From Candidatus Krumholzibacteriota bacterium (GTDB lineage Bacteria; Krumholzibacteriota; Krumholzibacteriia; LZORAL124-64-63), in the NCBI GenBank assembly GCA_039714075.1, contig JBDLKA010000072.1, forward strand, positions 1-18,567: 18,567 bases of DNA, written 5' to 3'. The position numbers and the translations under genes are program-made. Of the stretch, positions 2,412 to 17,746 are shown in pieces. Under the pieces are notes generated by a model. The model saw only the letters and a program-made list of their open reading frames with translations. It had not been told where the DNA came from and did not search any database. Positions within the stretch are counted from its first letter, which is position 1. Every line of letters begins with the position of its first letter.

Positions 2412-4845
2412 CCTCCAGCCAGGGCGGCGTCTCCAGGGCGCCGGAGGGGTCGAACAAGGCCTTCATATCCCGCAGGAAATCCAGGGGCACGCCAGGGGCA
2501 GGAGCACAGGCGGGAAGTATGTGGCCGTCTTTGCAGAAACGATCGGCGTGCCAACCGGCGGATGAACCTGCCGGATCGGGCGACCACACCAGTCGCGGCG
2601 CCGATTGCCAGATCCACCGGTCGATATTTGCGGGCCACATCTTCCGGTCCCCGTCTTCACCGGGCAACCGGGCCAGGAAAGTCCAATCGGGGGAAGAGAG
2701 GGCCCAGTCGGGAATCAGGCCGCTGTCCAGGAATTCACCGGCCCGGCCGAAGTCGAGTTCCAGATGCGAAGCCGGCGGGGAGCCCCCCAGGATGGCCTCC
2801 ATGTCCTTCCCCGCCTGGTCCAGATCCCACGGTCTGCTGCGGCCGGGAAGCAGGACGACCACCTCCGGCTCGGGATTTTCGGTGGAAGCGTCGACGATCA
2901 TCACCGGCCCGCCCAGGCCGTCGTCCCTGGTTGCCAGGTATCGGGCCAAACGGTCGAGATCCGGTTCGCGCCGCTTGCGATCGGCCAAGGGGAAACGCCA
3001 GCAACCGACGCTTTCGGGAACCGGCCGGAGCTGAAAGGTGGCCGCCAGGGGTTGGGCCCAGACACGGCCCGAACCGCACAGCATGTGGACCAGATCGTAA
3101 CCCGCCACGTTCTTGAACACCGGAGCGCCCGCGTGGAAAAGACGCCCCGCACCCGTTTCCGCCCAGAGCTCCAGGAGGAATTGGCGGGCCGTCCCCGTCC
3201 CGCAAAAAGAGGGACCCGCAACAAGATGGGCCACCAGATCCCCCACGGTGCCGGCGGATCCCAGACCGCAGCCCGAGCTGTGGAAAACAGCCCCCACGGG
3301 AATCCAGAACCCCTTGGCGAGGGCGGCCTCCTGGATCCCGGCCAGAGGCGTGTCCGCCGGTGCGGTCACCGTCAGGTTCGCCCATTGGAAAACGGTTTCA
3401 GCAGGGAGAGGTTCGACCGGCCTGAAAGTCGCCTCGGCGCCGGGATGCAGTTTGCCCGGGTTCAGGATCTCCCGGGGATCGAAAATATCCTTTATCCCCC
3501 GCTGCAGGCGCGCGGTTTCGCCGTCGATCTGCCAGGGCAACGCATGGAGTTTTTCGATCCCCACGCCGTGTTCGCCGGTGATGCTGCCCCCCCGGGCCAG
3601 GGTGGCCCGGATGATGTCATCGGCCGCCGCGTGGGCGCGGCGGGTCTGGTCGGGATCACGGTCGTCATAACACACACCGGGGTGCAGGTTGCCGTCCCCG
3701 GCGTGGAAGGCGGTGATGACGTCCACGCCGTGGCCGGCCTTGATGACCTGGATTTCCCGGACCAGCCCCGGCAGTTCACCCAGAGGGACGACAACGTCCA
3801 TGGTCACGTAACTGGGCGTCAAGCGTCCGACGGCGCCGAAGGCCTTCTTGCGGCACTTCCACAGTTCGAGGCGTTCGGCCTCGTCGGCCGCGCGGCGCAC
3901 GTCGCTGGCGCCATGGCCGGCCAGCAGGGCGGCGGCGCGGTCACCATCCTCAACCGTTTCCTGCGGCCGGCCCACGAATTCGACAATCATCGCGGCTTCG
4001 ACGTCGGTGGGAAAACCGAAGCCGAAGGCTTCTTCAACCGCCGCCAGCACGGCCTGGTCCACCATCTCCACCGCCACCGGAGCCAACCCCTCGCCCAACA
4101 GGCCGACCACCGCGCGGGCGGCATCCTCCAGGTCGGGAAAAAACGCCAGCAGGGTGGATACGTCCGCAGGGTCGGCCACCAGCCTGAGGTCGGCCGCCGT
4201 CACCAGACCCAGGGTTCCCTCGCTGCCGCACAACAGCGACAAAAGGTCCAGACCACGCTCCACCGCCAGGCCCCGGCCGGTGCGGTGGAGCCTGCCGTCG
4301 GCGTCGAGCCATTCCAGGTGCAGCAGGTGCTGAAGGGTGACCCCGTGCCGCAGGCAGTGGGGTCCCCCCGCGTTTTCGGCGATGTTGCCGCCGATGCTGG
4401 ACGCGGCCTGGCTGGAGGGATCGGGGGCGAAATGAAGACCGTGGCCGGCGGCATGCCGGGTCACGCCATCGTTCAGGACTCCCGGCTGGACCCGAACCCG
4501 ACCGCCATACGAATCTACAGGGTCGAGGTCGGTCAACCGCGAGGTCCCCACGACGACCGCATCGGGGCCGGGCACCGCGCCTCCGCTCAAACCCGTTCCG
4601 GTGCCGCGGCAAACCACCGGAACCTCAGCCTTGCGGCACAGGCGGATCACCCGGCGGAGTTGCGCCTCATCGGCCGGAAGCGCTACGGCCAAGGGCCGGC
4701 CCCCGGTCAGATGGGAGGCGTCCCGGGAATAGACCAGCCGGATCGCTTCGTCCGCGTGGAATCCGCGTACGCCCAGGATCTCTTGCAGTTCTGCCAAAAA
4801 GGCGGGGGAAGAACCGGATTCCTGGTCAGGTGCGATCCCGGACAT
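2398..4845 (-). CDS. glcD: FAD-linked 2-hydroxyacid oxidoreductase: GlcD-like N-terminal ~467 aa fused to a degenerate GlcE-like C-terminal module
   Basis: GlcD motifs RGTGTGLSGGA, FAPDPSSQ..SIGGNIAENAGGPHCL, GSEGTLG, HAGDGNLHP, ITGEHGVG, FDPREILNPGK. These are followed by GlcE-like LTVTAPADTPLAGIQEA, FKNVAGYDL and a second MKALFDPSG ending. Confidence 0.8.
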   Translation of the reverse strand: MSGIAPDQESGSSPAFLAELQEILGVRGFHADEAIRLVYSRDASHLTGGRPLAVALPADEAQLRRVIRLCRKAEVPVVCRGTGTGLSGGAVPGPDAVVVGTSRLTDLDPVDSYGGRVRVQPGVLNDGVTRHAAGHGLHFAPDPSSQAASSIGGNIAENAGGPHCLRHGVTLQHLLHLEWLDADGRLHRTGRGLAVERGLDLLSLLCGSEGTLGLVTAADLRLVADPADVSTLLAFFPDLEDAARAVVGLLGEGLAPVAVEMVDQAVLAAVEEAFGFGFPTDVEAAMIVEFVGRPQETVEDGDRAAALLAGHGASDVRRAADEAERLELWKCRKKAFGAVGRLTPSYVTMDVVVPLGELPGLVREIQVIKAGHGVDVITAFHAGDGNLHPGVCYDDRDPDQTRRAHAAADDIIRATLARGGSITGEHGVGIEKLHALPWQIDGETARLQRGIKDIFDPREILNPGKLHPGAEATFRPVEPLPAETVFQWANLTVTAPADTPLAGIQEAALAKGFWIPVGAVFHSSGCGLGSAGTVGDLVAHLVAGPSFCGTGTARQFLLELWAETGAGRLFHAGAPVFKNVAGYDLVHMLCGSGRVWAQPLAATFQLRPVPESVGCWRFPLADRKRREPDLDRLARYLATRDDGLGGPVMIVDASTENPEPEVVVLLPGRSRPWDLDQAGKDMEAILGGSPPASHLELDFGRAGEFLDSGLIPDWALSSPDWTFLARLPGEDGDRKMWPANIDRWIWQSAPRLVWSPDPAGSSAGWHADRFCKDGHILPACAPAPGVPLDFLRDMKALFDPSGALETPPWLEDENA

Positions 4846-4849
4846 GGCC

Positions 4850-7800
4850 TCAGCCTTTGGGCACGGGTTTGTGTTCGGCGGAAAGGGCGGGCTTCGGCCG
4901 GCGCCGCCCCGTCAGTTTGCGGGGAATCCTCCCCAGGGCCTCGAAAATGTCTTCGGACAGGGTCGTCGTCGTCGGCAGAAGGATCAGGGTCAGGAACGCG
5001 CTCACGAACAGCCCGCCCATGATCACCAGGGCCATGGAGTAATAGTAGACCCCGCCCAGGGACGGCTTCTGGACCACGATGGGCACCAGGCCGATCAGGG
5101 TCGTCACCGCCGTCATGACGATGGGACGCAGGCGCTCGCGGCCGCCGCGCATCATGGCTTCGGTTCTCTCCATGCCCCGGCGCCGATACTGATTGATGTG
5201 CTCCAGCATGACGATGCCGTTGTTCACCACGATGCCGATCAGCAGAAGAAGACCGATGGCCGCGGGCTGATCGAATGAGGTCCCGGTGAAGTAAAGGGTC
5301 CAGATGGCGCCGGACAGGGCGAAGGGCAACGACACCATCAGGGCCAGGGCCTGCCGGACCGATTCGAAGAGCCCGGCCATGACCGCGAACACCAGCATCA
5401 GCGCCAGCAGAAGGTTGGTCATGAATTCCCGGGACTGTTCCTTGCGGAGCGATTCCCACTGGCCGAAGGTCCAGTTATAACCAAAAGGGAATTCCATTCC
5501 CGCCAGCGCCTGCTCTACCTGGGGGATGTAATCCTCCCGCCTCCCGTCCTGGTAGCGGGCGGTTACCCAGACGCTCGTCAACCGGTTGTCCCGCTGGATG
5601 TGTTCCCGGCCCGGACGCTGATTCAAATCCGCCACCGCGGCCAGGGGCACCTTCTCGCCCTCGGGGGTGTGCATGACCAGGTTCTGGAGCTGGTCCAGGC
5701 TCTCCACTTCCTGCTCGTCCAGGGTCAGGCGCATTTCCCGTTCCCCTTCCGGGGTCCGGAACCGCTGCAGCCTGCGGCCGCGGTAGGTCAGGCCCACCAC
5801 CTGGGAAACCTGGTCCGGGCTGATGTCGTACCGCGCCGCCAGGTCCCGGTCCGGTTCGATATGCAGTTCCTGCTGGGCTTCGGCATGGCGGGTTTCCACG
5901 TCGATCAGGCCGGGGATGGTTTCGATCTTCAGAATGGCCGTTTCCGCCAGCTCCATCAGGACCTGGGTATCCTCCCCCACCAGTTGGAAGGCCACGCGGT
6001 CGCGGCCGCGGTGCCGCCGCCAGCCCATGCTGTTTTCCTGGACCCGCAGCTGGACTCCGGCCAGCTCCGGCAGCAAGCCCCGCAGGGTGTTCCGCACCTG
6101 GTTGATGTTTTCCTCGTTGGCCTCGCCTTCCTCGAGATAGATCCTGGTCAGGGAGAACCGGTCGCTCCAGAAGCTGTAGATCGAACGCGCCATGAGGTCT
6201 TCGCGGTGGGGCTCGAGGACCTGTTCGACCTGGGAAATCACCTTCTCCTTGCGGTCCAGGCTCATCTCCTCGCTGAATTCGTAACGCACCTGGACGAAGA
6301 GCTCGGTCTGGCTGGTGTCGAAGTTCATGTCCACCCGCTGAAAGGGGAAGACGGCCGACCCGACCACCACCAGACCCACCACCGGGCTGATCCACCGGCG
6401 CTTCAGGCTGACCGCCAGCATCCGTTGAAAGACATCTTCCAGCCAGATCATGGCCCTGCCCCTGGGCCGGGGCTTGGACTTGATGTACCACGAGGTGGCC
6501 AGGGGAATGAGCGTCTGGCTGATGAACAGGGAAGCCAGCAGGGTGAGGCAGACGGTGATGCCCAGTTCCTTGAGATAGAGATTCATCTCGCTGGGCTTGT
6601 TGAAGATCAGCGGAATGAACACGATGACCGAAGTCAGGGTCGCGGCGACCACCGCGGTGGTGACCTCGCGGGCGCCCAGGCGGGCGGCGGTCTTGCGGTC
6701 GGCTCCCAGTTCGCGGTGGCGGAAGATGTTTTCCATCACCACGACCGCGTTGTCCACCAGCATCCCGATGCCCACGATCAATCCGAGCAGGGTCAGGGTG
6801 TTGAGTGATTTGCCCTGGGCCCAGACGATGCCGCAGGTCACGATCAGCGAGAAGGGAATGCAGCTGACCGCCACCAGGGTCGTGGAAACCCGCCGCAGGA
6901 ATCCGAAGAGAACCAGGGCCGCCAGGATGGAGCCGAAAATTCCGGTGAAGGTCAGGTCCCTGAGGGTCTTGCGGATTTCCTGTCCCTGGCTGAACCAGAC
7001 CAGGAAGTTGACGCCCTCCAATTCCGGGTCGTCGTTCATGCGGGCGATGGCCGCTTCCAGTTCATCGCAGACCTCGACGGTGTTGGCCTTGGACTCCTGG
7101 GTCACCGTGACCCCGATGGCGAAATGGCCGTCCAGGTGGCGGCCGTATTCCAGCGGCGGTTCCTGGTACACCACGTCCGCGACGTCGGACAGGTGCAGGC
7201 CGTCCGCGCGCAGGGGCAGGTTGCTGATCTGCTCGACATCGCCGAAGGTGCCGATGGTGCGCAGGGTCCAGCGCGAGTCCCGGGAGACGATCTTCCCCAG
7301 GGACTGGTCGAAGTTTCCCGCGCGCAATACGCGGGCCACGTCCCGGACGTCGAGGTTGTGAAGTTCCAGGTCGGCCACCCGCAGGTTGATCCGCACTTCC
7401 CGGGGATTCACCCCGTCCAGACGAACCTGCGCGACCCCGGACACCCTTTCCAGGGGCCGGATGATCTTCCTTTCCAGCAGGTCGTAACTTTCGCTGAGAT
7501 CCCGCGGCGAACTGAGGCGTCCCTCGAGGACCGGCTGGTCCGCGTCACGTGAATCCCAACTGGTCGAGACCTCGATGTCCCCGATGTCCTCCGGCAATTC
7601 CCCCCTGATCCGGTCGATGCGTTCCCACACCTCCACCCGGGCCAGATGCATGTCCACGTCCCAGGAGAAATTCAGCCGGATGCGCCCGCCGTCACTGCCG
7701 CAGCGTGACCACATGCTTTGCAAACCGCGGACGCTGCCGACGGCATCCTCGACCGGACGGACGATCATACGCTCCACCTGTTCGGGTGAAGCATTTTCGT

Positions 7801-7951
7801 AAGGAAGATTTATAAACAGTTCCGGTTCGGTAATATCCGGCATGAAGGCCAGCGGCAGCCGGCCCAGGGCGACCAGTCCGAGGACCACGATGCTCACCAG
7901 CACCATCAAAGTGGTGACGGGCCGTTTGATGGCCAGTTCCGGGAGCGTCAT
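4850..7951 (-). CDS. RND efflux transporter permease subunit (AcrB/AcrD/AcrF family), second of a pair
   Basis: 1033 aa; N-terminal AIKRPV, ASPEQVE..IVRPVE, GMLVDNAVVVMENI (TM4), GIVVNNGIV (TM10), RLRPIVMT (TM11); two large periplasmic loops. Confidence 0.95.
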   Translation of the reverse strand: MTLPELAIKRPVTTLMVLVSIVVLGLVALGRLPLAFMPDITEPELFINLPYENASPEQVERMIVRPVEDAVGSVRGLQSMWSRCGSDGGRIRLNFSWDVDMHLARVEVWERIDRIRGELPEDIGDIEVSTSWDSRDADQPVLEGRLSSPRDLSESYDLLERKIIRPLERVSGVAQVRLDGVNPREVRINLRVADLELHNLDVRDVARVLRAGNFDQSLGKIVSRDSRWTLRTIGTFGDVEQISNLPLRADGLHLSDVADVVYQEPPLEYGRHLDGHFAIGVTVTQESKANTVEVCDELEAAIARMNDDPELEGVNFLVWFSQGQEIRKTLRDLTFTGIFGSILAALVLFGFLRRVSTTLVAVSCIPFSLIVTCGIVWAQGKSLNTLTLLGLIVGIGMLVDNAVVVMENIFRHRELGADRKTAARLGAREVTTAVVAATLTSVIVFIPLIFNKPSEMNLYLKELGITVCLTLLASLFISQTLIPLATSWYIKSKPRPRGRAMIWLEDVFQRMLAVSLKRRWISPVVGLVVVGSAVFPFQRVDMNFDTSQTELFVQVRYEFSEEMSLDRKEKVISQVEQVLEPHREDLMARSIYSFWSDRFSLTRIYLEEGEANEENINQVRNTLRGLLPELAGVQLRVQENSMGWRRHRGRDRVAFQLVGEDTQVLMELAETAILKIETIPGLIDVETRHAEAQQELHIEPDRDLAARYDISPDQVSQVVGLTYRGRRLQRFRTPEGEREMRLTLDEQEVESLDQLQNLVMHTPEGEKVPLAAVADLNQRPGREHIQRDNRLTSVWVTARYQDGRREDYIPQVEQALAGMEFPFGYNWTFGQWESLRKEQSREFMTNLLLALMLVFAVMAGLFESVRQALALMVSLPFALSGAIWTLYFTGTSFDQPAAIGLLLLIGIVVNNGIVMLEHINQYRRRGMERTEAMMRGGRERLRPIVMTAVTTLIGLVPIVVQKPSLGGVYYYSMALVIMGGLFVSAFLTLILLPTTTTLSEDIFEALGRIPRKLTGRRRPKPALSAEHKPVPKG

Positions 7952-7964
7952 ATGCGGCGTCCTC

Positions 7965-10900
7965 TCAATCTTCCTCGCCCACCCGCGACGGCACCACCAG
8001 GTAGGCCGCGGGAATGACCACCAGGGTCAGCAGGGTGCTCAGGGCCAGACCGCTGGCCACGGTGATGGCCAGGGGTGAGCGCAACTCGGCACCCTCGCCC
8101 CAGGCCAGGGCCATGGGCATCAGTCCCAGGATGGTCGTCAGGGTCGTCATCAGGATCGGTCTCAATCTGATATGGCCCGCCCGGATCACGGCTTCGAGCT
8201 TGGTCGCTCCGTTCCGTCGCAGGCGGTTGATGGTGTCGATGAGCACGATGGCGTTGTTGACCACGATCCCCACCAGCATCACCGTGCCGATCAGCACAAT
8301 GACGGTGATCGGCGTGGAAGTCGCCAGCAGGCCGGCCACCACCCCGACCAGCGCCAACGGAATGGTGAACAGGACCAGGAACGGATGCAGGAACGATTCG
8401 AAGGTGGCCGCCATGACCAGGTAGACCAGGAAAATCGCCAGGCCGATGGCGAAGCGCAGACTGCCGAAGCTGACCTGCATTTCCTTGTTCTGCCCCCCGA
8501 GGTCCAGGGACAGTCCCGTGGTGCGGGGCATGCCGTCCATGATGCGCTGGACGTCGGCGACGGCCGCGCCCAGGCTGCGGCCGTCCAGGTTGGCCGAAAC
8601 CACGGCCGCCCGCTGCTGCTGGAGCCGGTGGATTTCCGCCGGCCCGCGGTCCTCCGTCACCTCGGCCACCGACAGCAGGCGCAGGGGCTCGCCGTCGGGC
8701 CCGGGCACGATGAGGTTGCGGACGTCGTTCACCGTCTGCCGATGGCTTTCCCGGTTGCGGATGCGGATGTCGATCTGCCGGTCCTGCTCCTTGAACTTGG
8801 TGGGCACCACGCCAAGGACCCTGTTTTTCAGGGTTTCGGACAGCACGCCCATGTCCAGGCCCAGGGCGGCCAGGCGCTCCCGGTCGAACACGACCTGCAG
8901 TTCGGGGTTGCCCGCTTCCAGCGAGGAGCGGACGTCGACCAGGCCGGGGACGGCATTCAGTTTCCCGGCCAATTCCAGGGAGTAGGAGCGCAGCTGGTCC
9001 AGATCATCGCCGAAGATGAGCACCTCGACCGGCGTCTTGAGACTGAAATACGAGGGCCGGCCGAACTTGATCTCCAGGTCGGGAAGGGCGGAGAAATCGC
9101 GGCGCAGCCGTTCGGCGAGGTTCACCTCACCTTCGCTGTCGGACCGGTCCTTCATCACCAGGTTCAGCTGGCCCAGGTTTTCCGCCTTGGTGTTCAGGGA
9201 CATCCCGCCGGAAACTAGCCGGCTGCCCACGGTCGCGTAGTAGCGATCCACGGCGGATTCACCTCCGGCGGCCTGTTCCATCAGTTTGACCGACCGGTCG
9301 GTGGCGGCCAGCGAGGCTCCCTCCGGCAACTTGACCTCGAAAAAGAATTCGCCTTCGCTGAGCTGCGGAATGAGCTCGGTGCCCAGCAGGCCCACGGCGG
9401 CGAGCGCGCCGAAGAAGAGGGCGAAACCGACGAGCAGGGTCAGGTATTTGAACCTGAGAGCGCCCTGGAGAAACCCGTCATAGATTCCGGAAAACCAGCC
9501 CAGGGTCCGGTCGGAAACCGGCTGCGCGGGACCCTCCGCAGCCGTGGATTCCATCAGGGCTTCGGCCACCCGGTCCGCCCGCGGCAGGCGGCCGCCCGCC
9601 GCGCTCAGCATGGGAATCACCGTCACGGCCACCACCAGGGAAGCCAGGATGCTGAAGGTGACGGTCAGGGCCTGGTCGCGGAACAACTGCCCCGCCACCC
9701 CTTCCACGAACACGATGGGCAGGAACACCGCCACGGTGGTCAAGGTGGACGCCACCACGGCGCCCCCCACTTCGGCTGTACCGTGCACCGCCGCGGCGAA
9801 CAGCAGCCGGCCTTCCTTCCTCTGGCGGTAAATGGACTCCAGCACCACGATCGAGTTGTCCACCAGCATGCCGATCCCCAGGGTCAGTCCACCCAGGGAC
9901 ATGATGTTCAGGGAGATGTCCATCTTGTACATCGCAATGAAGGTGGCGATCACCGAGATGGGAATGGAGGTGGCGATGATCAGCGTGCTGCGGGCATCCT
10001 TCAGGAACAGGAACAGGACGGTGATCGCCAACAGCCCACCGATGAGGGCGGCGTTGCGGACCTCGTCCACGGCCTGCTGGATGAACTGGGACTGGTCGAA
10101 CAACACGGTCAGGGTGGCGCCTGCGGGCAGCTTGCCGTTCTGCCATTCGGCGATCCGGTCGCGCAGGCGGCGGGCCACCGTCACGGTGTTGGCGTCGCCC
10201 TCCTTGTAAAGGGAGATCTCCACCGATTCACGCCCATTCACGCGCGTGATTTCCTCCCGTTCCCGGCTGCCCCACCGCACCGTCGCCACCTCGCCCAAGC
10301 GAACCGAAGCCCCCTCGGAGTGGACGATGATCAGGTCGGCGATTTCCTGGATGTCCTGGAACTCGTTGATGGTCCGAATGAGGTACTGGCTGTCCTGGCC
10401 GCGCAGAGCCCCTCCGGGAAGGTTCACGTTGCTGACACCGACGACCTGGCGCACACGGTCGATGGTGATGCCCAGGGCCGCCAGGCGCTCCTGGTCGACC
10501 TCGATCTGGATTTCCTCTTCCAGGCCGCCCTTGATGCCCGCCGCCGCCACGCCCTTGACGGTTTCGAAATCCTGCTTGATCTGCCGATCGGCCAGGCGGC
10601 GCAGGGTGGTCAGGTCGCTGTCGCCGGCCAGGGCCAGGCGGATGATGGGATCCAGGCTGGGATCGAAGCGCAGGACCACCGGATCGGTGGCCTCTTCCGG
10701 CATGACCAGCCGGTCGAGCATCTCGCGGACTTCCATGGACAGCAGGTCCATGTCGCTGCCCCACTCGAATTCCAGGGTGACCTCGGAAATCCCCGCGCGC
10801 GACACCGAGTGGATGGTCTGCAATCCGCGCAGAACACCCACGGCCTCCTCCACCGGACGGGTCACCAGGTTCTCGACTTCCTGGGGCGCCGTGTCGGGGA

Positions 10901-11054
10901 ATTCGGTCTGCACGGTGATCGACGGATAGGTGATGTCGGGAAACAGCTCGAGGGAAAGGCGGTTGTATCCCACCAACCCGAAAGCGATGACGGCCAGGGC
11001 CGCCATGACCACGCTGACCCGCCTGCGGACCGCCAGACTGACTATGGTCTGCAT
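7965..11054 (-). CDS. RND efflux transporter permease subunit (AcrB/AcrD/AcrF family), first of a pair
   Basis: 1029 aa; ELFPDI, APQEVENLVTRPVEE, SLNIMSLGGL..GMLVDNSIVVLE, GIVVNNAIVL, RLRPILMTTLTT, GEGAELRSPLA. Confidence 0.95.
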   Translation of the reverse strand: MQTIVSLAVRRRVSVVMAALAVIAFGLVGYNRLSLELFPDITYPSITVQTEFPDTAPQEVENLVTRPVEEAVGVLRGLQTIHSVSRAGISEVTLEFEWGSDMDLLSMEVREMLDRLVMPEEATDPVVLRFDPSLDPIIRLALAGDSDLTTLRRLADRQIKQDFETVKGVAAAGIKGGLEEEIQIEVDQERLAALGITIDRVRQVVGVSNVNLPGGALRGQDSQYLIRTINEFQDIQEIADLIIVHSEGASVRLGEVATVRWGSREREEITRVNGRESVEISLYKEGDANTVTVARRLRDRIAEWQNGKLPAGATLTVLFDQSQFIQQAVDEVRNAALIGGLLAITVLFLFLKDARSTLIIATSIPISVIATFIAMYKMDISLNIMSLGGLTLGIGMLVDNSIVVLESIYRQRKEGRLLFAAAVHGTAEVGGAVVASTLTTVAVFLPIVFVEGVAGQLFRDQALTVTFSILASLVVAVTVIPMLSAAGGRLPRADRVAEALMESTAAEGPAQPVSDRTLGWFSGIYDGFLQGALRFKYLTLLVGFALFFGALAAVGLLGTELIPQLSEGEFFFEVKLPEGASLAATDRSVKLMEQAAGGESAVDRYYATVGSRLVSGGMSLNTKAENLGQLNLVMKDRSDSEGEVNLAERLRRDFSALPDLEIKFGRPSYFSLKTPVEVLIFGDDLDQLRSYSLELAGKLNAVPGLVDVRSSLEAGNPELQVVFDRERLAALGLDMGVLSETLKNRVLGVVPTKFKEQDRQIDIRIRNRESHRQTVNDVRNLIVPGPDGEPLRLLSVAEVTEDRGPAEIHRLQQQRAAVVSANLDGRSLGAAVADVQRIMDGMPRTTGLSLDLGGQNKEMQVSFGSLRFAIGLAIFLVYLVMAATFESFLHPFLVLFTIPLALVGVVAGLLATSTPITVIVLIGTVMLVGIVVNNAIVLIDTINRLRRNGATKLEAVIRAGHIRLRPILMTTLTTILGLMPMALAWGEGAELRSPLAITVASGLALSTLLTLVVIPAAYLVVPSRVGEED

Positions 11055-12232
11055 CAGCGGCCCGCTCCCGACTCGTCCTCGAGGATCTTCAGCGGCGACC
11101 CGTTCTTGAGGGATCGCTGGCCCTTGACGACCACGGTTTCGTCCAGAGCCAGGCCCGACAGGATCTGGGCCTGTTCATCGTCGGTGAACCCCACCTCGAC
11201 GATGCGCCGTTCGGCGGTGGGTTCGGAATCGGGTTTTTCACCCGCAACAACGGTGTAGACCACCGACTCACCCTTGTCGGTCAGGACCGCGATGCGGGGC
11301 ACCAGCGCAACGCCGTCGCGCTTCTCGGTCACGATCTGCACCTGGGCGAAATCACCCGGCCGGGTCTGTTCCGGGTATTCCGGCACCTCGATGGTGAGCT
11401 TGATGGTTCCACTGGTCGGGTCGATGACCGGGCTGACCAGCTTGATGCGGCCGGCCAGCCGGGCCCCCGTGCTGTCCAGGACCAGGTTGACCGCCTGATC
11501 GGCCTGGAGCTTCCTGAATTCTCGGCTGGGCACATGGACCCGCGCCAGCAGGGGATCGAAATCGGCCATGACCATCACCGCGTCGCCCACAGTCAGATTC
11601 TGACCTACATCCACCAGACGGCTGGTGACGCGGCCGCTGAAGGGCGCGGTGACGGTGGTGTGCGACAGGGCCAGCCGGGCCAGGCCCTCGTCGGCCTCGG
11701 CGCTGGCCAGCTCGCTGCGGACCGCCTGGAATTCCTCCTCGGTGGCCAGCTCTTCCTTCATCATCAATTCCATCCGCTCGAACCGCGAGCGGGTGTTCGC
11801 CGTAGCGGCGGCGGCCTGTTCCAGTCGATAGCGGTACTCGTCGTTGTCCACCTTGAGCAGCGGATCGCCGGCGTCGACAAAGTCCCCTTCCTCGACCAGG
11901 AGCGTTTCCACGACACCGGTCGCCCGGGCCAGAATCTGGGCTTCCTTTTCGGCCTCGAGGGTGGCCGTGGCCCGGTAGTAACTGGAGATGGAACCGCTGA
12001 CCACCCGGGTTACGGCGACGGGAATGGCCGGTTGGGCGGGCCGCCCGCCCGGCTTGTGGCCCTGTCCGTGGTTGCCGGCGCCGGGGCCGTGACCCTGGCC
12101 GCCCGGGGCCGCCTGATCGCCACCGGAATCCCCACATCCACCGCTTCCGGTCAGGAAAACCAGCGACAACAACATCAACAGCACCGGAATACAACTTGGG
12201 CCGCCTCTTCGGATCCAGGCCATCTTTCCCAT
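11054..12232 (-). CDS. RND efflux periplasmic adaptor (membrane fusion protein), probable lipoprotein
   Basis: Basic N-terminus, hydrophobic stretch and GSGGC; lipoyl half-motifs GVVETLLVEEGDFVDAGDPL and TVTAPFSGRV; ISP-like VSPVIDPTSGT; C-terminal ILSGL..DETVVVKG. Its TGA overlaps the ATG of the next gene by 1 nt. Start is 12232 or 12223. Confidence 0.93.
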   Translation of the reverse strand: MGKMAWIRRGGPSCIPVLLMLLSLVFLTGSGGCGDSGGDQAAPGGQGHGPGAGNHGQGHKPGGRPAQPAIPVAVTRVVSGSISSYYRATATLEAEKEAQILARATGVVETLLVEEGDFVDAGDPLLKVDNDEYRYRLEQAAAATANTRSRFERMELMMKEELATEEEFQAVRSELASAEADEGLARLALSHTTVTAPFSGRVTSRLVDVGQNLTVGDAVMVMADFDPLLARVHVPSREFRKLQADQAVNLVLDSTGARLAGRIKLVSPVIDPTSGTIKLTIEVPEYPEQTRPGDFAQVQIVTEKRDGVALVPRIAVLTDKGESVVYTVVAGEKPDSEPTAERRIVEVGFTDDEQAQILSGLALDETVVVKGQRSLKNGSPLKILEDESGAGR

Positions 12233-12459: not shown

Positions 12460-13239
12460 ATGAAAATAGCGGTATGTGTCAAGCAGGTTCCCGATTCGGA
12501 AACCAGGATCAATCTGGCCGCGCCCGCCGCCGAGCTGGACGAATCCGGATTCACGCGGGTCCTGAATCCCTACGACGCCTACGCCGTCGAGGAAGCGGTC
12601 AAGATCAAGGAAGCCGGTGGCGAGGTCGAAGTGACGGCCATCACCATTGGTCCCGAGACCGTCAAGGAAACCCTCAAGAAGGACTGCCTGGCCGTGGGCT
12701 GCGACAAGGCCGTGATCATCACCGATCCCGCCCTGGACGGAGCCGACGAGACCGCCCTGTCCACCGTTCTGACCGCCGCCCTGGGCCGCGATTCCTATGA
12801 CCTGGTCCTGTTCGGCATCAAGGCCATCGACGACGACAGCGGACAGATCGGCATCATGGTGGCCGAAAAGATGGGACTGCCCCACGTTTCGACCATCACC
12901 CATCTGGAACTGGGCGACGGTTCCCTGACCGCCCACCGGGAAATCGAAGGCGGCAAGGAGATCGTTACCGCGGCGATGCCCGCGGTGCTGACCTGCCAGA
13001 AGGGGCTGAACGAACCCCGCCTGCCGAGCCTGCCCAACATCATGAAGGCCGGCATGAAGCCCATGGAGACGCTGACCTGCGCGGACCTGGGTATCGAAGT
13101 CCCGGCCAGCCTGGTCGAGATCAAGCTCTACTCCCCGCCCCCGGCGCGGGCCGAATGCAAACTGGTGGAGGCCGAAGAACCGGCCGCCGCCGCCCATGAA
13201 CTGGCCCGCCTGCTTCATGAAGAAGCCAAGGTGATTTAA
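12460..13239 (+). CDS. etfB: Electron transfer flavoprotein beta subunit
   Basis: MKIAVCVKQVPD, NPYDAYAVEEA, GIKAIDDDSGQIG, REIEGG, NEPRLPSLPNIMKA; strong RBS. Confidence 0.97.
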   Translation: MKIAVCVKQVPDSETRINLAAPAAELDESGFTRVLNPYDAYAVEEAVKIKEAGGEVEVTAITIGPETVKETLKKDCLAVGCDKAVIITDPALDGADETALSTVLTAALGRDSYDLVLFGIKAIDDDSGQIGIMVAEKMGLPHVSTITHLELGDGSLTAHREIEGGKEIVTAAMPAVLTCQKGLNEPRLPSLPNIMKAGMKPMETLTCADLGIEVPASLVEIKLYSPPPARAECKLVEAEEPAAAAHELARLLHEEAKVI

Positions 13240-13283
13240 GCCCTGCGTTTTCAACCCGGCCCATGGCCGAGGGGAGTTTCGAC

Positions 13284-14255
13284 ATGCCGAACATTGCCGT
13301 ATTCATCGAACAGCGGGACGGCGCCCTGAAGAAGGTCGCCTGGCAGATGGTGAGTGAAGCCCGCCGGATCGCCGACGCCGCCGGCGGCGAAGTGTGGGGC
13401 GTTTTCCTGGGCGCCGATGCGTCCGCCGCCACCGCCGAAGCCGGAAAGTACGGAGCCGACAAGGTCTTCTCCGCCACCGGCGAGGAATTCAACCAGTACA
13501 ACAGCGAAATCTACGGAACGGCCCTGGCGGCTTTCTGCAAGTCCGCCGGTCCGGATATCCTGCTCCTGGGCTCGACCGCCATGGGCAAGGACCTCGGTCC
13601 CAAGGTCGCCGCCAAGCTGGAATGCGCGTGCATCAGCGACGCGGTGGGCCTGAAGTACGAAGGCGGCTGGGAAGTGCGGCGGCCCATCTTCGCGGGCAAG
13701 TGCTTCGCCGATGTGGCCCCCAAATCGGCCATGGCCGTGGTGGGCATCCGCCCGAACGCCTTCATTCTCGAGGAAAAGAACGCCCCCGCGGCGGGCGAGA
13801 CCTTTGACGCGGGCACCGCCGGGATCGATCCCAAGGCCGTGGTCGGCAGCATCGAGTCGGGCGACGGCGGCAAGATCGAACTGACCGAGGCCGAGACCAT
13901 CGTCTCGGGCGGCCGCGGCATCAAGGGCCCGGAGAACTACGAGTTGATCGAGAAACTTGCCGACACCCTGGGCGCCGCCGCCGGCGCGAGCCGGGCCGTC
14001 GTCGACGCCGGCTGGGTGGACTACTCCCACCAGGTCGGCCAGACCGGCAAGACCGTCGGTCCGAACCTGTACATCGCCTGCGGCATCAGCGGCGCCATCC
14101 AGCATCTGGCGGGCATGAGCAGCAGCAAGTGCATCGTGGCCATCAACAAGGACGCCAACGCCCCCATCTTCAAGGTGGCGGACTACGGCGTGGTCGCGGA
14201 TCTGTTCGATATCGTGCCGGCCCTGACGGACGAGATCGGCAAGATCAGGAGTTGA
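13284..14255 (+). CDS. etfA: Electron transfer flavoprotein alpha subunit
   Basis: [67 protein letters not shown]. Start placed at ATG 13284 (GGGAG RBS at 13272-13276) rather than 13263. Confidence 0.97.
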
Positions 14256-14274: not shown

Positions 14275-14308
14275 GGCTGCCCCGCCCTCGGGCGGGGTGG
14301 TCTGTTTA
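14275..14308 (+). terminator. Probable intrinsic terminator after etfA
   Basis: GGCTGCCCCGCC-ctcg-GGCGGGGTGGTC stem (with G-U pairs) followed by TGTTTA. Confidence 0.6.
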
Positions 14309-14338: not shown

Positions 14339-14881
14339 ATGCCGGAAACCCCAACCCGACGCGTCATGCAGGCCACCTGGAACTGGCAGTCCCGCGAGGA
14401 CGCCGTTCCCGGAGGGCCGGCCGGCCAACTCCGCCGTGGCGCCCTGATCCAGGCCGTGGTGATGGGTCTCATCGCGGCGTTTCTGTTTTTCGGCCTCCAT
14501 CATCATCTGCTGGCCCGCGTCATCTGGGCCCTGGCCGGCCTAGTGCTGATCCTGGGGCTGGTCTTTCCACCGGCCTACCGCCCCATCCACACTTTCGGCC
14601 GCTGGTTGGGCAGCGTGGTCGGCCAAGGCCTGACCTATCTGCTGCTGGTCCCCTTTTTCTTCCTCTTCTTCACGCCGGTGTCCCTGATCCTGCGCCTGCA
14701 GGGCCGCGACCCGCTGCATCGCGGTTTCCGCGATCCCCAATGGACCTACTGGATCGCCCGTTCGCAAAAGTCGCGGGAAGAAAACATCGACAGGCAGTTC
14801 CTGCGCGAGGAACGGGAAGGCCGGAAACAACTGCGCCCCGTCGGTGAGGCGGCCGGTGGACAAGGGACGGACCGGCCATGA
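14339..14881 (+). CDS. SxtJ-family membrane protein
   Basis: About three hydrophobic segments, then FFFLFFTPVSLILRLQGRDPL and TYWIAR, the TP..R..G.DPL/YWI pattern I recall for SxtJ-like proteins. ATG 14339 has a GAGG RBS. An ATGA overlap couples it to the carbamoyltransferase. Confidence 0.8.
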   Translation: MPETPTRRVMQATWNWQSREDAVPGGPAGQLRRGALIQAVVMGLIAAFLFFGLHHHLLARVIWALAGLVLILGLVFPPAYRPIHTFGRWLGSVVGQGLTYLLLVPFFFLFFTPVSLILRLQGRDPLHRGFRDPQWTYWIARSQKSREENIDRQFLREEREGRKQLRPVGEAAGGQGTDRP

Positions 14882-16713
14882 ACATCCTCGGCATCTCCGC
14901 CTACTACCACGATTCTGCCGCCTGCCTGGTCCAGGACGGAATCGTGACCGCGGCCGCCCAGGAGGAACGGTTCACACGGCGCAAACACGACTCGGCTTTC
15001 CCCGTAAACGCGGTCCGTTACTGCCTGGCCGAGGGCGGGATCGCCAAGGACGGCCTCGACGCGGTGGTCTTCTACGACAAGCCCCTGACCAAGTTCGGGC
15101 GCATCGCCAAAACCTATTTTTCGGTGGCGCCCCGGGGATTGCGTCCGTTCCTGATGGCCATCCCCCTGTGGCTGCAGGAAAAACTGTGGATCCCCACCGA
15201 CATCGAGAAAGCCCTGCGTGACGCCGGCGGCGGGCGGGCGAAACATCTCTACTTCGCGGAACATCACGAATCGCACGCGGCCAGCGCCTTTTTTCCCAGC
15301 CCTTACCAGAGCGCGGCCGTCCTGACAATGGACGGGGTCGGCGAATGGGCCACCACTTCGGTGGGCCACGGAACCGGCAACCGGGTGGACATCCTGGAGG
15401 AACTGCATTTCCCCCACTCGCTGGGGCTGCTCTATTCGGCCTTCACGTACTTCACCGGTTTCCGGGTCAACTCCGGGGAATACAAGCTGATGGGGCTGGC
15501 GCCCTACGGCGAGCCGAAATTCGTCGACCGGATTCTTGACAACCTCGTCGACATCCGCGACGACGGCTCGTTCCGGCTGAACATGGACTATTTCGGCTAC
15601 CATGACGGCCTGACCATGACCAACGAGCGTTTCGCCCGGTTGTTCGACGGCCCCGCCCGGGCCCCGGAAACCGACATGTCCCGGCGCGAAATGGACCTGG
15701 CCCGTTCGGTCCAGGTGGTCACCGAGGAAATCGTCCTGAAGCAGGTCGCGCACGCGGCCCGGGTGACCGGGGAAAAGAACCTCTGTCTGGCCGGTGGCGT
15801 GGCCCTGAATTGCGTGGCCAACGGCCGCATCCTGCGCGAGAGCTCATTTGAAAACGTCTGGATCCAGCCCGCGGCCGGCGACGCCGGCGGCGCCCTGGGT
15901 GCGGCCCTGCACGTCTGGCACCAGGTGCAGGACAACCCCCGCCGGGTCGACGGGAAAACCGACGCCATGGACGGGGCCTACCTGGGTCCGGCCTATCCCG
16001 ACGACGAGATCCGCGAGTGGCTCGACCATCAGGGCTATCCCTACCGGACGCTGGACGACGGCGATCTGGAAAACGAGGTGGCCCGGCTGATAGACGAGCA
16101 GAACGTCCTGGGACTGTTCCAGGGCCGCATGGAGTTCGGTCCGCGGGCCCTGGGCAACCGTTCCATCGTCGGTGATGCCCGCTCGTCGAAAATGCAGTCG
16201 GTCCTCAACCTGAAGATCAAGTACCGGGAATCGTTCCGGCCGTTTGCGCCTTCCTGCATGGAAGAAAGGATCGGGGACTTTTTCGACATCGACCGCCCCA
16301 GTCCCTACATGCTGCTGGTGGCCCAGGTCCGGCCCGACCGCTGCCTGCCGCCTGAAGACTCCGACGACGGCACCGACCTCTACAAGCGTGTTTCCCGGCC
16401 CCGGTCCGATGTCCCGGCCATCACCCACGTGGACTATTCGGCCCGCATCCAGTCGGTCAGCGGACAGACCAACCCCCGCTATCACCGGATCATCCGGGCC
16501 TTCGAGGAAAGGACCGGATACGGGATCATCATCAACACGTCGTTCAACGTGCGCGGCGAGCCCATCGTCTGCACCCCCGAAGACGCCTACCGCTGCTTCA
16601 TGCGGACGGAGATGGATTTCCTGGTCCTGGGGAACCACATTCTGGATAAATCGGCCCAACCGGCCATGGAAATGGCCAAAGAGGCCTGGCAGGAAGAATT
16701 CCCGCTGGATTGA
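14878..16713 (+). CDS. O-carbamoyltransferase (NodU/CmcH/TobZ family, SxtI-like)
   Basis: ILGISAYYHDSAA, EERFTRRKHD, HHESHA (Kae1-like metal site), DGVGE, EYKLMGLAPYG, GGVALNC, AGDAG, EFGPRALGNRS, KYRESFRPFAP, HVDYSARIQSV, NTSFNVRGEPIV. Confidence 0.96.
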   Translation: MNILGISAYYHDSAACLVQDGIVTAAAQEERFTRRKHDSAFPVNAVRYCLAEGGIAKDGLDAVVFYDKPLTKFGRIAKTYFSVAPRGLRPFLMAIPLWLQEKLWIPTDIEKALRDAGGGRAKHLYFAEHHESHAASAFFPSPYQSAAVLTMDGVGEWATTSVGHGTGNRVDILEELHFPHSLGLLYSAFTYFTGFRVNSGEYKLMGLAPYGEPKFVDRILDNLVDIRDDGSFRLNMDYFGYHDGLTMTNERFARLFDGPARAPETDMSRREMDLARSVQVVTEEIVLKQVAHAARVTGEKNLCLAGGVALNCVANGRILRESSFENVWIQPAAGDAGGALGAALHVWHQVQDNPRRVDGKTDAMDGAYLGPAYPDDEIREWLDHQGYPYRTLDDGDLENEVARLIDEQNVLGLFQGRMEFGPRALGNRSIVGDARSSKMQSVLNLKIKYRESFRPFAPSCMEERIGDFFDIDRPSPYMLLVAQVRPDRCLPPEDSDDGTDLYKRVSRPRSDVPAITHVDYSARIQSVSGQTNPRYHRIIRAFEERTGYGIIINTSFNVRGEPIVCTPEDAYRCFMRTEMDFLVLGNHILDKSAQPAMEMAKEAWQEEFPLD

Positions 16714-16773
16714 CATACCGCGGGCCGCGCATGATCTTGGCGGCACACCCCGGATGAAAAGGACAAGGATCGC

Positions 16774-16938
16774 GTGAGTAAGTTTTTCTACATCGGCCGC
16801 CTGTTCCGCGAAATATTCCAGTTCGCCATGCAGAACAAGGCCTGGTGGATCGTGCCGACCGTGCTGATCCTGCTGGTGCTGGGCGTTCTCATCTTTTCCG
16901 GGCAGGCCGTGGCGCCGTTCATCTATACGCTGTTCTAG
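16774..16938 (+). CDS. Small single-pass membrane protein, SxtK/DUF5989 family (54 aa; absent from the ORF track)
   Basis: GTG start with AAGGA RBS at 16765-16769. Translation: MSKFFYIGRLFREIFQFAMQNKAWWIVPTVLILLVLGVLIFSGQAVAPFIYTLF*. The K.WW..P and C-terminal APFIYTLF signature matches SxtK-like proteins, codons are GC3-rich, and a terminator follows. Confidence 0.88.
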   Translation: MSKFFYIGRLFREIFQFAMQNKAWWIVPTVLILLVLGVLIFSGQAVAPFIYTLF

Positions 16939-16964: not shown

Positions 16965-17005
16965 AAAAAGCCGCCGCGGGAAATGACCGCGGCGGCTTTT
17001 CTTTT
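16965..17005. terminator. Bidirectional intrinsic terminator
   Basis: AAAAA-GCCGCCGCGG-gaaatga-CCGCGGCGGC-TTTTCTTTT between convergent genes ending at 16938 and 17021. Confidence 0.9.
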
Positions 17006-17020
17006 GCGACAGGCGACGGA

Positions 17021-17632
17021 TCAGCCGGCGACCTTGACCAGCAGGTCCTCCTTCAGACCGTCACTGGCCGGCTTTGCTCCGAACCAGACGGTCCACAGGG
17101 CCTTGACGAACTCGAAATTCGTGATGACGCCCTGCTCCGCACCGTTCAGAACCGTTTTCAGGCCCTTGCCGGGAATGTAGGTGAAGACGAGTTCATCGCC
17201 CTCCTGCGCATCGTTCTCGAAGTAGGCCAGGAAGGCATCCATGTCGGTGGAAAAAGCCGACAGGTCCTCGTAGTTGTCTTCGATGACATCCTTGAAGGCG
17301 TTGCAGAGCTTTTCACGGCTGAAGCCCCGCACCAGATCCATCCGGATCATCTTGGGAGCGTCCAGTTCCAGCAGCGAAATCCCCAGGTCGCCCTTGAGCT
17401 GGGTGCCGGTCGCCACATAGGAGACGATGGCGTAGACGTTGACCTTCAGGAAGGTCTTTTCCCGCAACCCCACTCCGGTGACGGTCAGGGTGTAGCTGGC
17501 GCCGTCGGTTTCGATGGTCACCGTGTCGTCGTATTCCATCTCCGTGTCGGGTTCGATGATGGCTCCGGCGGACCAGGGCATCATCAGGATGATCAGGGCC
17601 AGCAGGCTGGCGAAACGGGCATATCTGTACAT
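17021..17632 (-). CDS. Secreted chalcone-isomerase-like fold protein (Chalcone_3-type)
   Basis: Start re-assigned to ATG 17632 (GGGAGA RBS), giving a signal peptide MYRYARFASLLALIILMMPWSAGA. Motifs G.GLREK.FLKVNVYAI, GDELVFTYIPGKG, F.KALW.VWFG.KP.S..LK..LL are typical of bacterial CHI-fold proteins. Confidence 0.85.
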   Translation of the reverse strand: MYRYARFASLLALIILMMPWSAGAIIEPDTEMEYDDTVTIETDGASYTLTVTGVGLREKTFLKVNVYAIVSYVATGTQLKGDLGISLLELDAPKMIRMDLVRGFSREKLCNAFKDVIEDNYEDLSAFSTDMDAFLAYFENDAQEGDELVFTYIPGKGLKTVLNGAEQGVITNFEFVKALWTVWFGAKPASDGLKEDLLVKVAG

Positions 17633-17746
17633 GGCTGTTCTCTCCCGGGCCGGTGGAAAAAGGTCGGATGGCCTGGATCCGAATGACTCCAGACTACACC
17701 CCATCCCTCCCCTTGGACAAGCAAAAGGGTTGAACCCCGCCGGGAC

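Follow-up and report, generated by a model that had tools for sequence, protein, structure and literature searches.

The stretch of DNA analysed here, hereafter the window, comprises 18,567 nucleotides (nt) of contig JBDLKA010000072.1 (assembly GCA_039714075.1) from a Candidatus Krumholzibacteriota bacterium. At 16774..16938 of the forward strand lies a gene for a small membrane peptide, the last member of a three-gene unit ordered SxtJ-like membrane protein, O-carbamoyltransferase (CT), peptide. All features of this unit given below are on the same (+) strand. Read directly from the sequence, the peptide gene has a GTG start, 54 codons and a TAG stop, and encodes a peptide of 54 amino acids (aa), VSKFFYIGRLFREIFQFAMQNKAWWIVPTVLILLVLGVLIFSGQAVAPFIYTLF. 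An initial annotation of this DNA had proposed this open reading frame (ORF), its translation and its FIYTLF end, and the direct reading of 16774..16938 bears out all three. An AAGGA element resembling a ribosome-binding site (16765..16769) precedes the GTG by 4 nt.

Hydropathy places a single transmembrane helix at residues 24-41 of the peptide (WWIVPTVLILLVLGVLIF; 16843..16896). Its mean Kyte-Doolittle value is 2.68 in an 18-residue window starting at residue 26, the family mean being 2.97 and the family minimum 2.38. The chain ends in the hexapeptide F49-I-Y51-T-L-F54 (16918..16935), with the Tyr51 codon TAT at 16924-16926 and the TAG stop at 16936-16938. The N-terminus had been described as basic and amphipathic. 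It is basic (K3, R9, R12 and K22 versus E13), but its amphipathicity is no more than moderate: the hydrophobic moment over residues 2-22 is 0.40, a value attained by 14% of shuffles.

The peptide belongs to the DUF5989/SxtK family of microproteins, as indicated by Pfam, by its homologues and by profile searching. Pfam DUF5989 (PF19451) covers residues 10-54 and scores 60 bits where the cut-off is 27 (E 2.3e-16); no other family matched the peptide in a Pfam scan at E<=10. The Pfam score, the close homologues, the thousands of sequence clusters described below, the confirmed genome matches (at least 473) and the conserved synteny together confirm at the sequence level that the ORF is a real gene, far beyond chance. 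A hairpin followed by a U-run, resembling an intrinsic terminator, closes the unit at 16966..17005. It was found by folding (free energy -35.7 kcal/mol, z -4.46), and none of 200 shuffles was equally stable. A pattern scan for terminators did not list this hairpin although folding shows it, probably because A/U pairs prolong the stem into the T-run. The chalcone-isomerase-like gene at 17021-17704 converges on it.

The CT gene (14878..16713) ends 60 nt before the peptide gene. Its product of 611 aa is without a signal sequence and is of the TobZ/NovN/GdmN/NodU type according to Pfam and Protein Data Bank (PDB) matches. Both domains are present, the Kae1-like N-terminal one (Carbam_trans_N, E 2.4e-101) and the YrdC-like C-terminal one (Carbam_trans_C, E 2.3e-70). 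Full-length matches among PDB sequences include decarbamoylnovobiocin carbamoyltransferase (9s2t, E 8.5e-88), GdmN and TobZ (E ~1e-81).

The first gene of the unit (14339..14881) encodes a small membrane protein of 180 aa, recognised by a local hidden Markov model (HMM). In the ORF list its start is GTG 14297, a codon covered by the terminator-like hairpin that follows etfA (14275-14302), and a GAGG lies 7 nt ahead of ATG 14339; because of the overlap with the hairpin, the ATG is most likely the true start. The stop codon of this gene overlaps the CT start in the sequence ATGA (14878-14881), which suggests translational coupling. Helices are predicted at residues 27-51, 56-75 and 77-120, followed by a basic C-terminal tail, and the AlphaFold2 model has a mean predicted local distance difference test (pLDDT) score of 81.5. 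An iterated local HMM built from homologues at other loci ties the window protein to them at E 4e-39. Pfam SxtJ (PF19588) matches 31 of 46 aligned homologues (best E 1.7e-22), and the window's own copy reaches only E 0.038, under the cut-off, and is a divergent SxtJ.

The CTs of such units share a C-terminal extension past the TobZ-aligned part (16650-16713 in the window), which ends F-x-L-D with a near-invariant D611, and most SxtJ proteins terminate in Y-x-R-Q-F. To judge from these alignments, both ends may be docking elements between the partners.

A tyrosine near the free C-terminus

The peptide family is large. An exhaustive profile search gave 3790 representative clusters (50% identity) at E<=1e-3, of which 482 reached E<=1e-10. 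Among the best 150 of the 3790 representatives, 143 end in x-[ILV]-Y-x-x-[FW], 96 of them in FIYTLF, and the remaining seven are run-on or frameshifted fragments. A word-based search, which drew on the motif itself, returned 89 close homologues, 86 of them ending in FIYTLF.

A family logo was made from the 143 motif-bearing peptides and the window's own (n=144). Counting back from the C-terminus, it has P(-7) in 142 peptides, F(-6) in 134, I(-5) in 130, Y(-4) in 144, T(-3) in 127, L(-2) in 132 and F(-1) in 141, with W in the other three. Substitutions were seen at -6 (F, L, V, S, W, A, Y), -5 (I, V, L), -3 (T, P, S, A, V), -2 (L, F, I, M, V) and -1 (F, W). Tyr(-4) is the sole unvarying position of the motif, and the conservation expected for it in the initial annotation is complete in these 144 motif-bearing peptides. 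The profile contained the motif, and the listing is tilted towards peptides that bear it; variants with Phe in place of Tyr would still be listed, because that exchange costs few bits in a profile search.

When 46 syntenic peptides are aligned, F49-F54 show no variation and the mean column identity is 55%, making the tail, on this alignment, the most conserved segment of the peptide. The corresponding SxtJ alignment has no invariant column and a mean column identity of 25%. Since SxtJ is so poorly conserved, binding to it alone cannot account for the invariance of the tail.

The motif is also terminal, as had been anticipated. It ends 107 of the 120 longer domain-holding database proteins listed, and the other 13 continue exactly from the stop position, where they have W, Q, Y, F, L or S; five proceed into the CT N-terminus. 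From their sequences, these run-on proteins are read as stop codons translated by gene callers. None of the 120 longer proteins listed holds an MBOAT (membrane-bound O-acyltransferase) domain: the motif does not sit on an MBOAT polypeptide, and the peptide is free-standing.

Charge is distributed very unevenly around the helix. On average 3.0 Lys and Arg residues fall in the 15 residues before it, and only two of the 144 peptides have any Lys or Arg after it. The tail that follows the helix is uncharged and mostly 11-13 residues long (135 of 144). By the positive-inside rule, the N-terminus is predicted to face the cytoplasm and the C-terminus the outside, which agrees, across the family, with the topology first proposed for the window peptide.

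Several candidate fusions were rejected. P0243, the lone match in a single-sequence search for longer proteins, is a frameshifted read-through from CT to peptide. Proteins joining SxtJ or CT to DUF5989, where read, appear to stem from a frameshift or from translation of a stop codon as an amino acid (e.g., ...KKQF-Q-MVEFF... and ...FIYTLF-W-...). The long stop-to-stop frames that join the peptide to DNA upstream of it in loci L005, L041 and L043 are out of frame with the CT. Read-through of a stop, after the motif or after SxtJ and with one of the same six residues (W, Q, Y, F, L or S) in its place, was observed in P0250, P0263, P0272, P0277, P0291, P0297, P0313, P0321, P0330, P0341, P0342, P0347, P0353 and P0355. 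Such proteins are probably gene calls made under alternative genetic codes, yielding false fusion architectures in domain tables.

Conserved neighbours in other genomes

Genomes were scanned with a pattern that included APFIYTLF, giving at least 602 matching stretches, of which at least 473 were confirmed; 80 loci, chosen partly by this motif pattern and with mechanical ORF calls, were kept. The genome matches span at least 15 phylum-level names, mostly of Gram-negative-type phyla. For the neighbourhoods, all ORFs were clustered and representatives scanned, two clusters of antisense shadows being left out.

A CT gene stands next to the peptide gene on the same strand in 77 of the 80 loci, and SxtJ is present in 74 (iterated local HMM). 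With J, CT and K denoting SxtJ, CT and peptide, five gene orders occur: J-CT-K, CT-J-K, CT-K-J, J-K-CT and K-J-CT. The shuffled order argues for a functional link rather than inherited synteny. The three loci without an adjacent CT are L061, at a contig edge, L042, with a tetratricopeptide repeat (TPR) protein upstream, and L022, an orphan copy. The DUF5989 gene of L022 (8001-8147) is 71% identical to that of the window, keeps FIYTLF intact and lies between genes for an MscS-like protein and a metallo-beta-lactamase.

Beyond CT and SxtJ, ORF clustering and scanning revealed a GDSL/SGNH protein as the commonest neighbour. An iterated local HMM run over the whole loci found 46 SGNH/GDSL ORFs in 37 of the 80 loci; 30 of these ORFs, in 29 loci, are within 300 nt of the unit. 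Their density per 100 kb is 65.8 up to 300 nt, 4.7 between 300 and 1500 nt and 1.0-1.5 beyond 1.5 kb, an enrichment of about 50-fold at the unit's edge. Apart from these three families (CT, SxtJ and SGNH), neighbours of any one family occur in at most 7 of the 80 loci. Polytopic and envelope-glycan proteins are represented by PMT_2 (five), Wzy_C (three), a flippase, AT3, Bac_transf, an exosortase and transporters, and glycosyltransferase family 4 (GT4) is found as well.

In an alignment of 32 SGNH neighbours, the Gly and Ser of the G-D-S block and the C-terminal His are invariant. Nearly all have a hydrophobic helix ahead of the GDS block and catalytic domain, from which they are predicted to be membrane-anchored; the model of one (L019:8186-9388, m5a6d76120326; pLDDT 89.5) has an N-terminal helix at residues 3-31. 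Pfam assigns 29 of the 32 to Lipase_GDSL_2; ten also match ALGX, the SGNH domain of the acetyltransferase AlgX (best E 4.1e-9), and one matches DltD.

Plasmids and chromids hold further copies. The window's own peptide had no tblastn match among plasmids, and a typical family member matched 41 records from plasmids or chromids (Sinorhizobium 30, Ensifer 8, Rhizobium 1, Leisingera 1, Gemmatirosa 1). In the RefSeq annotation of Ensifer canadensis pT173d, a GDSL-type esterase, a hypothetical protein of 143 aa, a DUF5989 family protein, a carbamoyltransferase and a GT4 protein are listed together, in an exopolysaccharide locus with exopolysaccharide transport, sulfotransferase and flippase genes. 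On pSymB of Sinorhizobium meliloti, a divergent SGNH gene adjoins SxtJ-peptide-CT. A Leisingera plasmid is annotated with 'SxtJ family membrane protein' followed by 'DUF5989 family protein'.

Some loci are more elaborate, with two peptide copies and two or three SGNH paralogues. L036 has two peptide copies (8001-8156, 10356-10514), three SGNH genes and a second, partial CT match; L037 has two peptide copies (6371-6502, 8001-8132) and L066 three SGNH paralogues. Such multiplicity suggests several acceptors served by a single system. In L021, L033, L045, L052, L018 and L042 (Bacteroidota and related), the linked SGNH protein is 575-750 aa long with a long TPR-rich C-terminal half, and its gene usually adjoins or converges with the unit. 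In L082 (4285-6752) and L081 (4520-6954), from Sinorhizobium and Ensifer, the SGNH gene has as immediate neighbours genes for a HisKA_3 sensor kinase and for a response regulator of the LuxR type, a hint that expression of the unit is regulated.

A possible carbamoyl-tyrosine relay

A tyrosine in this position has a known precedent. DltX is a membrane microprotein with an invariant Tyr in a six-residue 'acyl shuttle' motif, FXYXXF, at an extracellular C-terminus (Anderson et al., JBC 2025, PMC12148441). According to the same source, PatA-type MBOATs carry FXYXXF at their own C-terminus, that of N. gonorrhoeae PatA being FIYANF, and the acyl-Tyr is the donor to an SGNH protein, DltD or PatB (PMC12148441). 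The C-terminal tyrosine shuttle with an SGNH recipient, which the initial annotation had named as established, is documented there as regards the motif, the extracellular invariant Tyr and the PatA ending. FIYTLF is in the same register, with Y(-4) in 144/144 peptides, F(-6) in 134/144 and F/W(-1) in 144/144.

The likeness to DltX extends to a free-standing single-pass microprotein of about 50 aa, to a Tyr four residues from a free and outward-facing (here predicted) C-terminus, and to genetic linkage both with a membrane-anchored SGNH protein (here in 29 of 80 loci, though not in the window) and with a cytoplasmic enzyme activating the transferred group. The systems differ in that DltX handles D-alanyl groups delivered by a carrier protein and the MBOAT DltB, whereas here a carbamoyl group, a TobZ-type CT and the three-helix SxtJ are proposed. 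PatA/AlgI-type MBOATs, whose SGNH partners are PatB, AlgJ and AlgX, have the motif in the same register (FIYANF as against FIYTLF), and ten of the 32 SGNH neighbours match ALGX, the partner domain of those systems. In these MBOATs, however, the motif is fused to the enzyme, and acetyl-CoA supplies its load by way of the MBOAT lumen; in the present family a separate peptide bears the motif, and no MBOAT accompanies it. The soluble enzymes TobZ, NovN, GdmN, NodU and CmcH resemble the window CT, which has both their domains and matches at E ~1e-81 to 1e-88. They act directly on soluble small molecules, and are not known to have membrane partners, whereas the CT discussed here is nearly always accompanied by two small membrane proteins.

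The same families occur in saxitoxin biosynthesis. The accessions of sxtI, sxtJ, sxtK and sxtL, the last of which encodes a GDSL lipase, run consecutively in the saxitoxin cluster (PMC2684587). In the L. wollei cluster, whose toxins are without the carbamoyl group, sxtI is truncated and sxtL is missing, which the authors explain by calling SxtL a decarbamoylase (PMC3037375). The window shares its families with SxtI-J-K: the CT is of the same type, homologues of the membrane protein match Pfam SxtJ, and sxtK (165 bp) encodes a DUF5989 peptide of 54 aa, as in the window. By its gene families, the four-gene unit of the 29 loci is the same block as sxtI-L. The window differs in having neither toxin-pathway genes (its neighbours are electron transfer flavoprotein (ETF), efflux and chalcone-isomerase-like genes) nor an SGNH gene. 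In papers from 2009 to 2025-26, among them a 2025 review and a 2026 preprint, SxtJ and SxtK, their function unknown, appear as hypothetical partners of SxtI. The SGNH partner that the initial annotation thought worth seeking is, in sum, found directly beside the unit in 29 of 80 loci and as SxtL beside sxtK, though not in the window itself.

The best reading of these features is a possible relay, which falls just short of being probable: the peptide would be a DltX-like carbamoyl-tyrosine carrier in a four-part system that carbamoylates an acceptor outside the cytoplasmic membrane. It would be analogous to the acyl-tyrosine shuttle of DltX and PatA, with a carbamoyltransferase as loader in place of an MBOAT. 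TobZ-type enzymes generate carbamoyl-AMP from carbamoyl phosphate and ATP, and the cytoplasmic CT would activate the carbamoyl group from the same two compounds. SxtJ and the basic N-terminal segment of the peptide would keep the CT at the membrane, and the invariant Tyr51 of the free C-terminal F-I-Y-T-L-F would receive the carbamoyl group on its phenol. Serine hydrolases are classically carbamoylated by aryl carbamates. With its catalytic Ser, a membrane-anchored SGNH protein might take over the carbamoyl group from such a carbamate, offered by the uncharged 11-13-residue tail at the outer face, and would then pass it to a hydroxyl of an envelope glycan or other exported molecule. This last transfer is proposed because of the gene linkage and the precedents of DltX/DltD and PatA/PatB. 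The crossing of the membrane would be the weakest step; SxtJ might be the path, or the peptide might be loaded before its short tail inserts. The window genes cover the steps up to the loading of the tyrosine, and any SGNH partner would lie elsewhere.

The invariant and terminal motif, in the register of the published shuttle (FXYXXF), the predicted topology and the linkage to CT, SxtJ and SGNH genes support the relay. A wider statement is put forward more tentatively, as less likely than not. It holds that DUF5989/SxtK peptides in general could be catalytic carbamoyl-tyrosine shuttles that, with SxtJ and a TobZ-type CT, carry an activated carbamoyl group over the cytoplasmic membrane without an MBOAT, and that the linked SGNH proteins, including SxtL, could be terminal extracytoplasmic O-carbamoyltransferases.

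A number of observations weigh against the relay. The CT is a cytoplasmic enzyme, whereas the predicted topology puts the Tyr on the outer side, with no route evident between them. Nothing recognisable as a conduit is encoded nearby, and none of 41 polytopic neighbour proteins (within 6 kb on either side, 80 loci) is an MBOAT; the SxtJ alignment is without conserved polar or catalytic residues, and the SxtJ model found no match in a fold search of the PDB (best E 2.1). No SGNH gene occurs in the window, where 143 frames gave no match at E<=10, and none is in view in 43 of the 80 loci; the orphan L022 has no CT or SxtJ within 8 kb of the peptide gene. Pfam includes a DltX model, and no homology to DltX was detectable by Pfam at E<=10 or by PDB sequence searches with peptide and profile, and the ESM Atlas yielded no look-alike, so that the likeness may be convergent. 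The C-terminal counts from the word-based search and the locus pattern are biased, both having drawn on the motif. The best fold match of the SGNH model is CgnD (8a2n; E 1.3e-8, template modelling (TM) score 0.62 on the target, 14% identity); the rest of the 50 matches listed are ordinary SGNH esterases, with no DltD, PatB or AlgX chain among them.

Some of the same facts suit a simpler arrangement, judged unlikely but worth serious attention, in which SxtJ and the peptide only hold the CT at the inner face as a membrane tether or assembly subunit. The CT would then carbamoylate a membrane-bound acceptor on the cytoplasmic side, e.g., a lipid-linked sugar; the conserved tail would serve as a structural plug or make contacts inside the complex, and the SGNH protein would be an unrelated esterase acting on the same polymer. 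This fits the near-universal linkage to CT and SxtJ (77 and 74 of 80 loci) as against 37 of 80 for SGNH and none in the window; it also fits the lack of a known conduit (no MBOAT, and no conserved polar residue in SxtJ), and SxtI, SxtJ and SxtK are already regarded as a complex in the literature, without evidence being given there. An anchor, however, does not need an invariant free C-terminal F-I-Y-T-L-F across the membrane from the enzyme, and the poorly conserved SxtJ is unable to impose such invariance. The roughly 50-fold SGNH enrichment at the edge of the unit and the exact FXYXXF register would be two coincidences. The peptide might instead be the substrate, with a tail that is carbamoylated, at Tyr51 or Thr52, and that the SGNH protein perhaps clips off; the outcome would be a modified small peptide or a permanently modified microprotein, comparable to natural products and cofactors derived from peptides. 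Peptide-derived cofactors do have strongly conserved C-terminal cores. CgnD, to which the modelled SGNH neighbour is structurally closest, releases the C-terminal core Ile-Tyr-Trp of its precursor peptide in crocagin biosynthesis, in a cluster that also encodes a carbamoyltransferase (PMC10070186). From the modelled fold, CgnD may belong to the same carbamoyl-linked SGNH subfamily. It was purified as a soluble protein, is reported to be a very slow peptidase/hydrolase and could not be labelled with phenylmethylsulfonyl fluoride (PMC10070186); despite being the best match, it is soluble and only 14% identical to the model. The substrate explanation is improbable: the peptide is a classic single-pass membrane protein, unlike the soluble leader-core precursors of cofactors and of peptides that ribosomes make and that are then modified post-translationally (RiPPs), no other tailoring enzyme recurs nearby, a core that stays identical over at least 15 phylum-level names would be unusual for an ordinary RiPP, and the topology problem is the same as for the relay. 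An ordinary DltX-type acyl shuttle serving an MBOAT encoded elsewhere, its position beside the CT being incidental or regulatory, would agree with the motif, size and predicted topology. It is made very improbable by the adjacent CT in 77 of 80 loci, in many phyla and in shuffled order, by the absence of MBOATs among the 41 polytopic neighbours and by the lack of a match to the DltX family. The remaining probability belongs to explanations outside those considered here.

If the carbamoyl-tyrosine relay is real, a function would be found for SxtJ and SxtK and for the large DUF5989 family, and carbamoyl would join the groups that bacteria attach outside the membrane. The tyrosine shuttle of the Dlt and Pat systems would be loadable by an enzyme unrelated to MBOATs, and, on the wider statement, would be a general, loader-independent device. 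SGNH 'lipases' beside carbamoyltransferases, including SxtL with its guessed decarbamoylase role, would need rereading. On that wider statement, carbamoylation of envelope glycans and exported metabolites would follow a widespread, undescribed pathway, occurring in Acidobacteriota, Planctomycetota, Verrucomicrobiota, Bacteroidota, Myxococcota, rhizobia, cyanobacteria and others. In the open-access papers and bioRxiv preprints covered by the searches, no paper on DUF5989 and no description of a link between this peptide and a carbamoyl-tyrosine or acyl shuttle were found, in line with the view of the initial annotation that the connection is undescribed. The new aspect may be a relay of the acyl-tyrosine kind in which both the loader and the transferred group differ from those of the known systems.

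Remaining genes of the window

The other genes of the window encode an outer membrane protein, an Fe-S/CCG protein, a FAD (flavin adenine dinucleotide) oxidase, two AcrB-type pumps with a membrane fusion protein, ETF, the chalcone-isomerase-like protein and an SdrD_B protein. They give no hint of a substrate, and a Pfam scan found no MBOAT among the window genes. At 1056-4845 (-) and 12460-14255 (+), an FAD-linked oxidase of 815 aa and the Fe-S/CCG protein are encoded near etfB/etfA; the set resembles an ETF-linked dehydrogenase of the lactate/glycolate type and has no bearing on the peptide. At 4850-12232 (-), a HlyD-type membrane fusion protein is followed by two tandem resistance-nodulation-division pumps of the AcrB family (1033 and 1029 aa), an arrangement like the heteromeric efflux system MdtABC.

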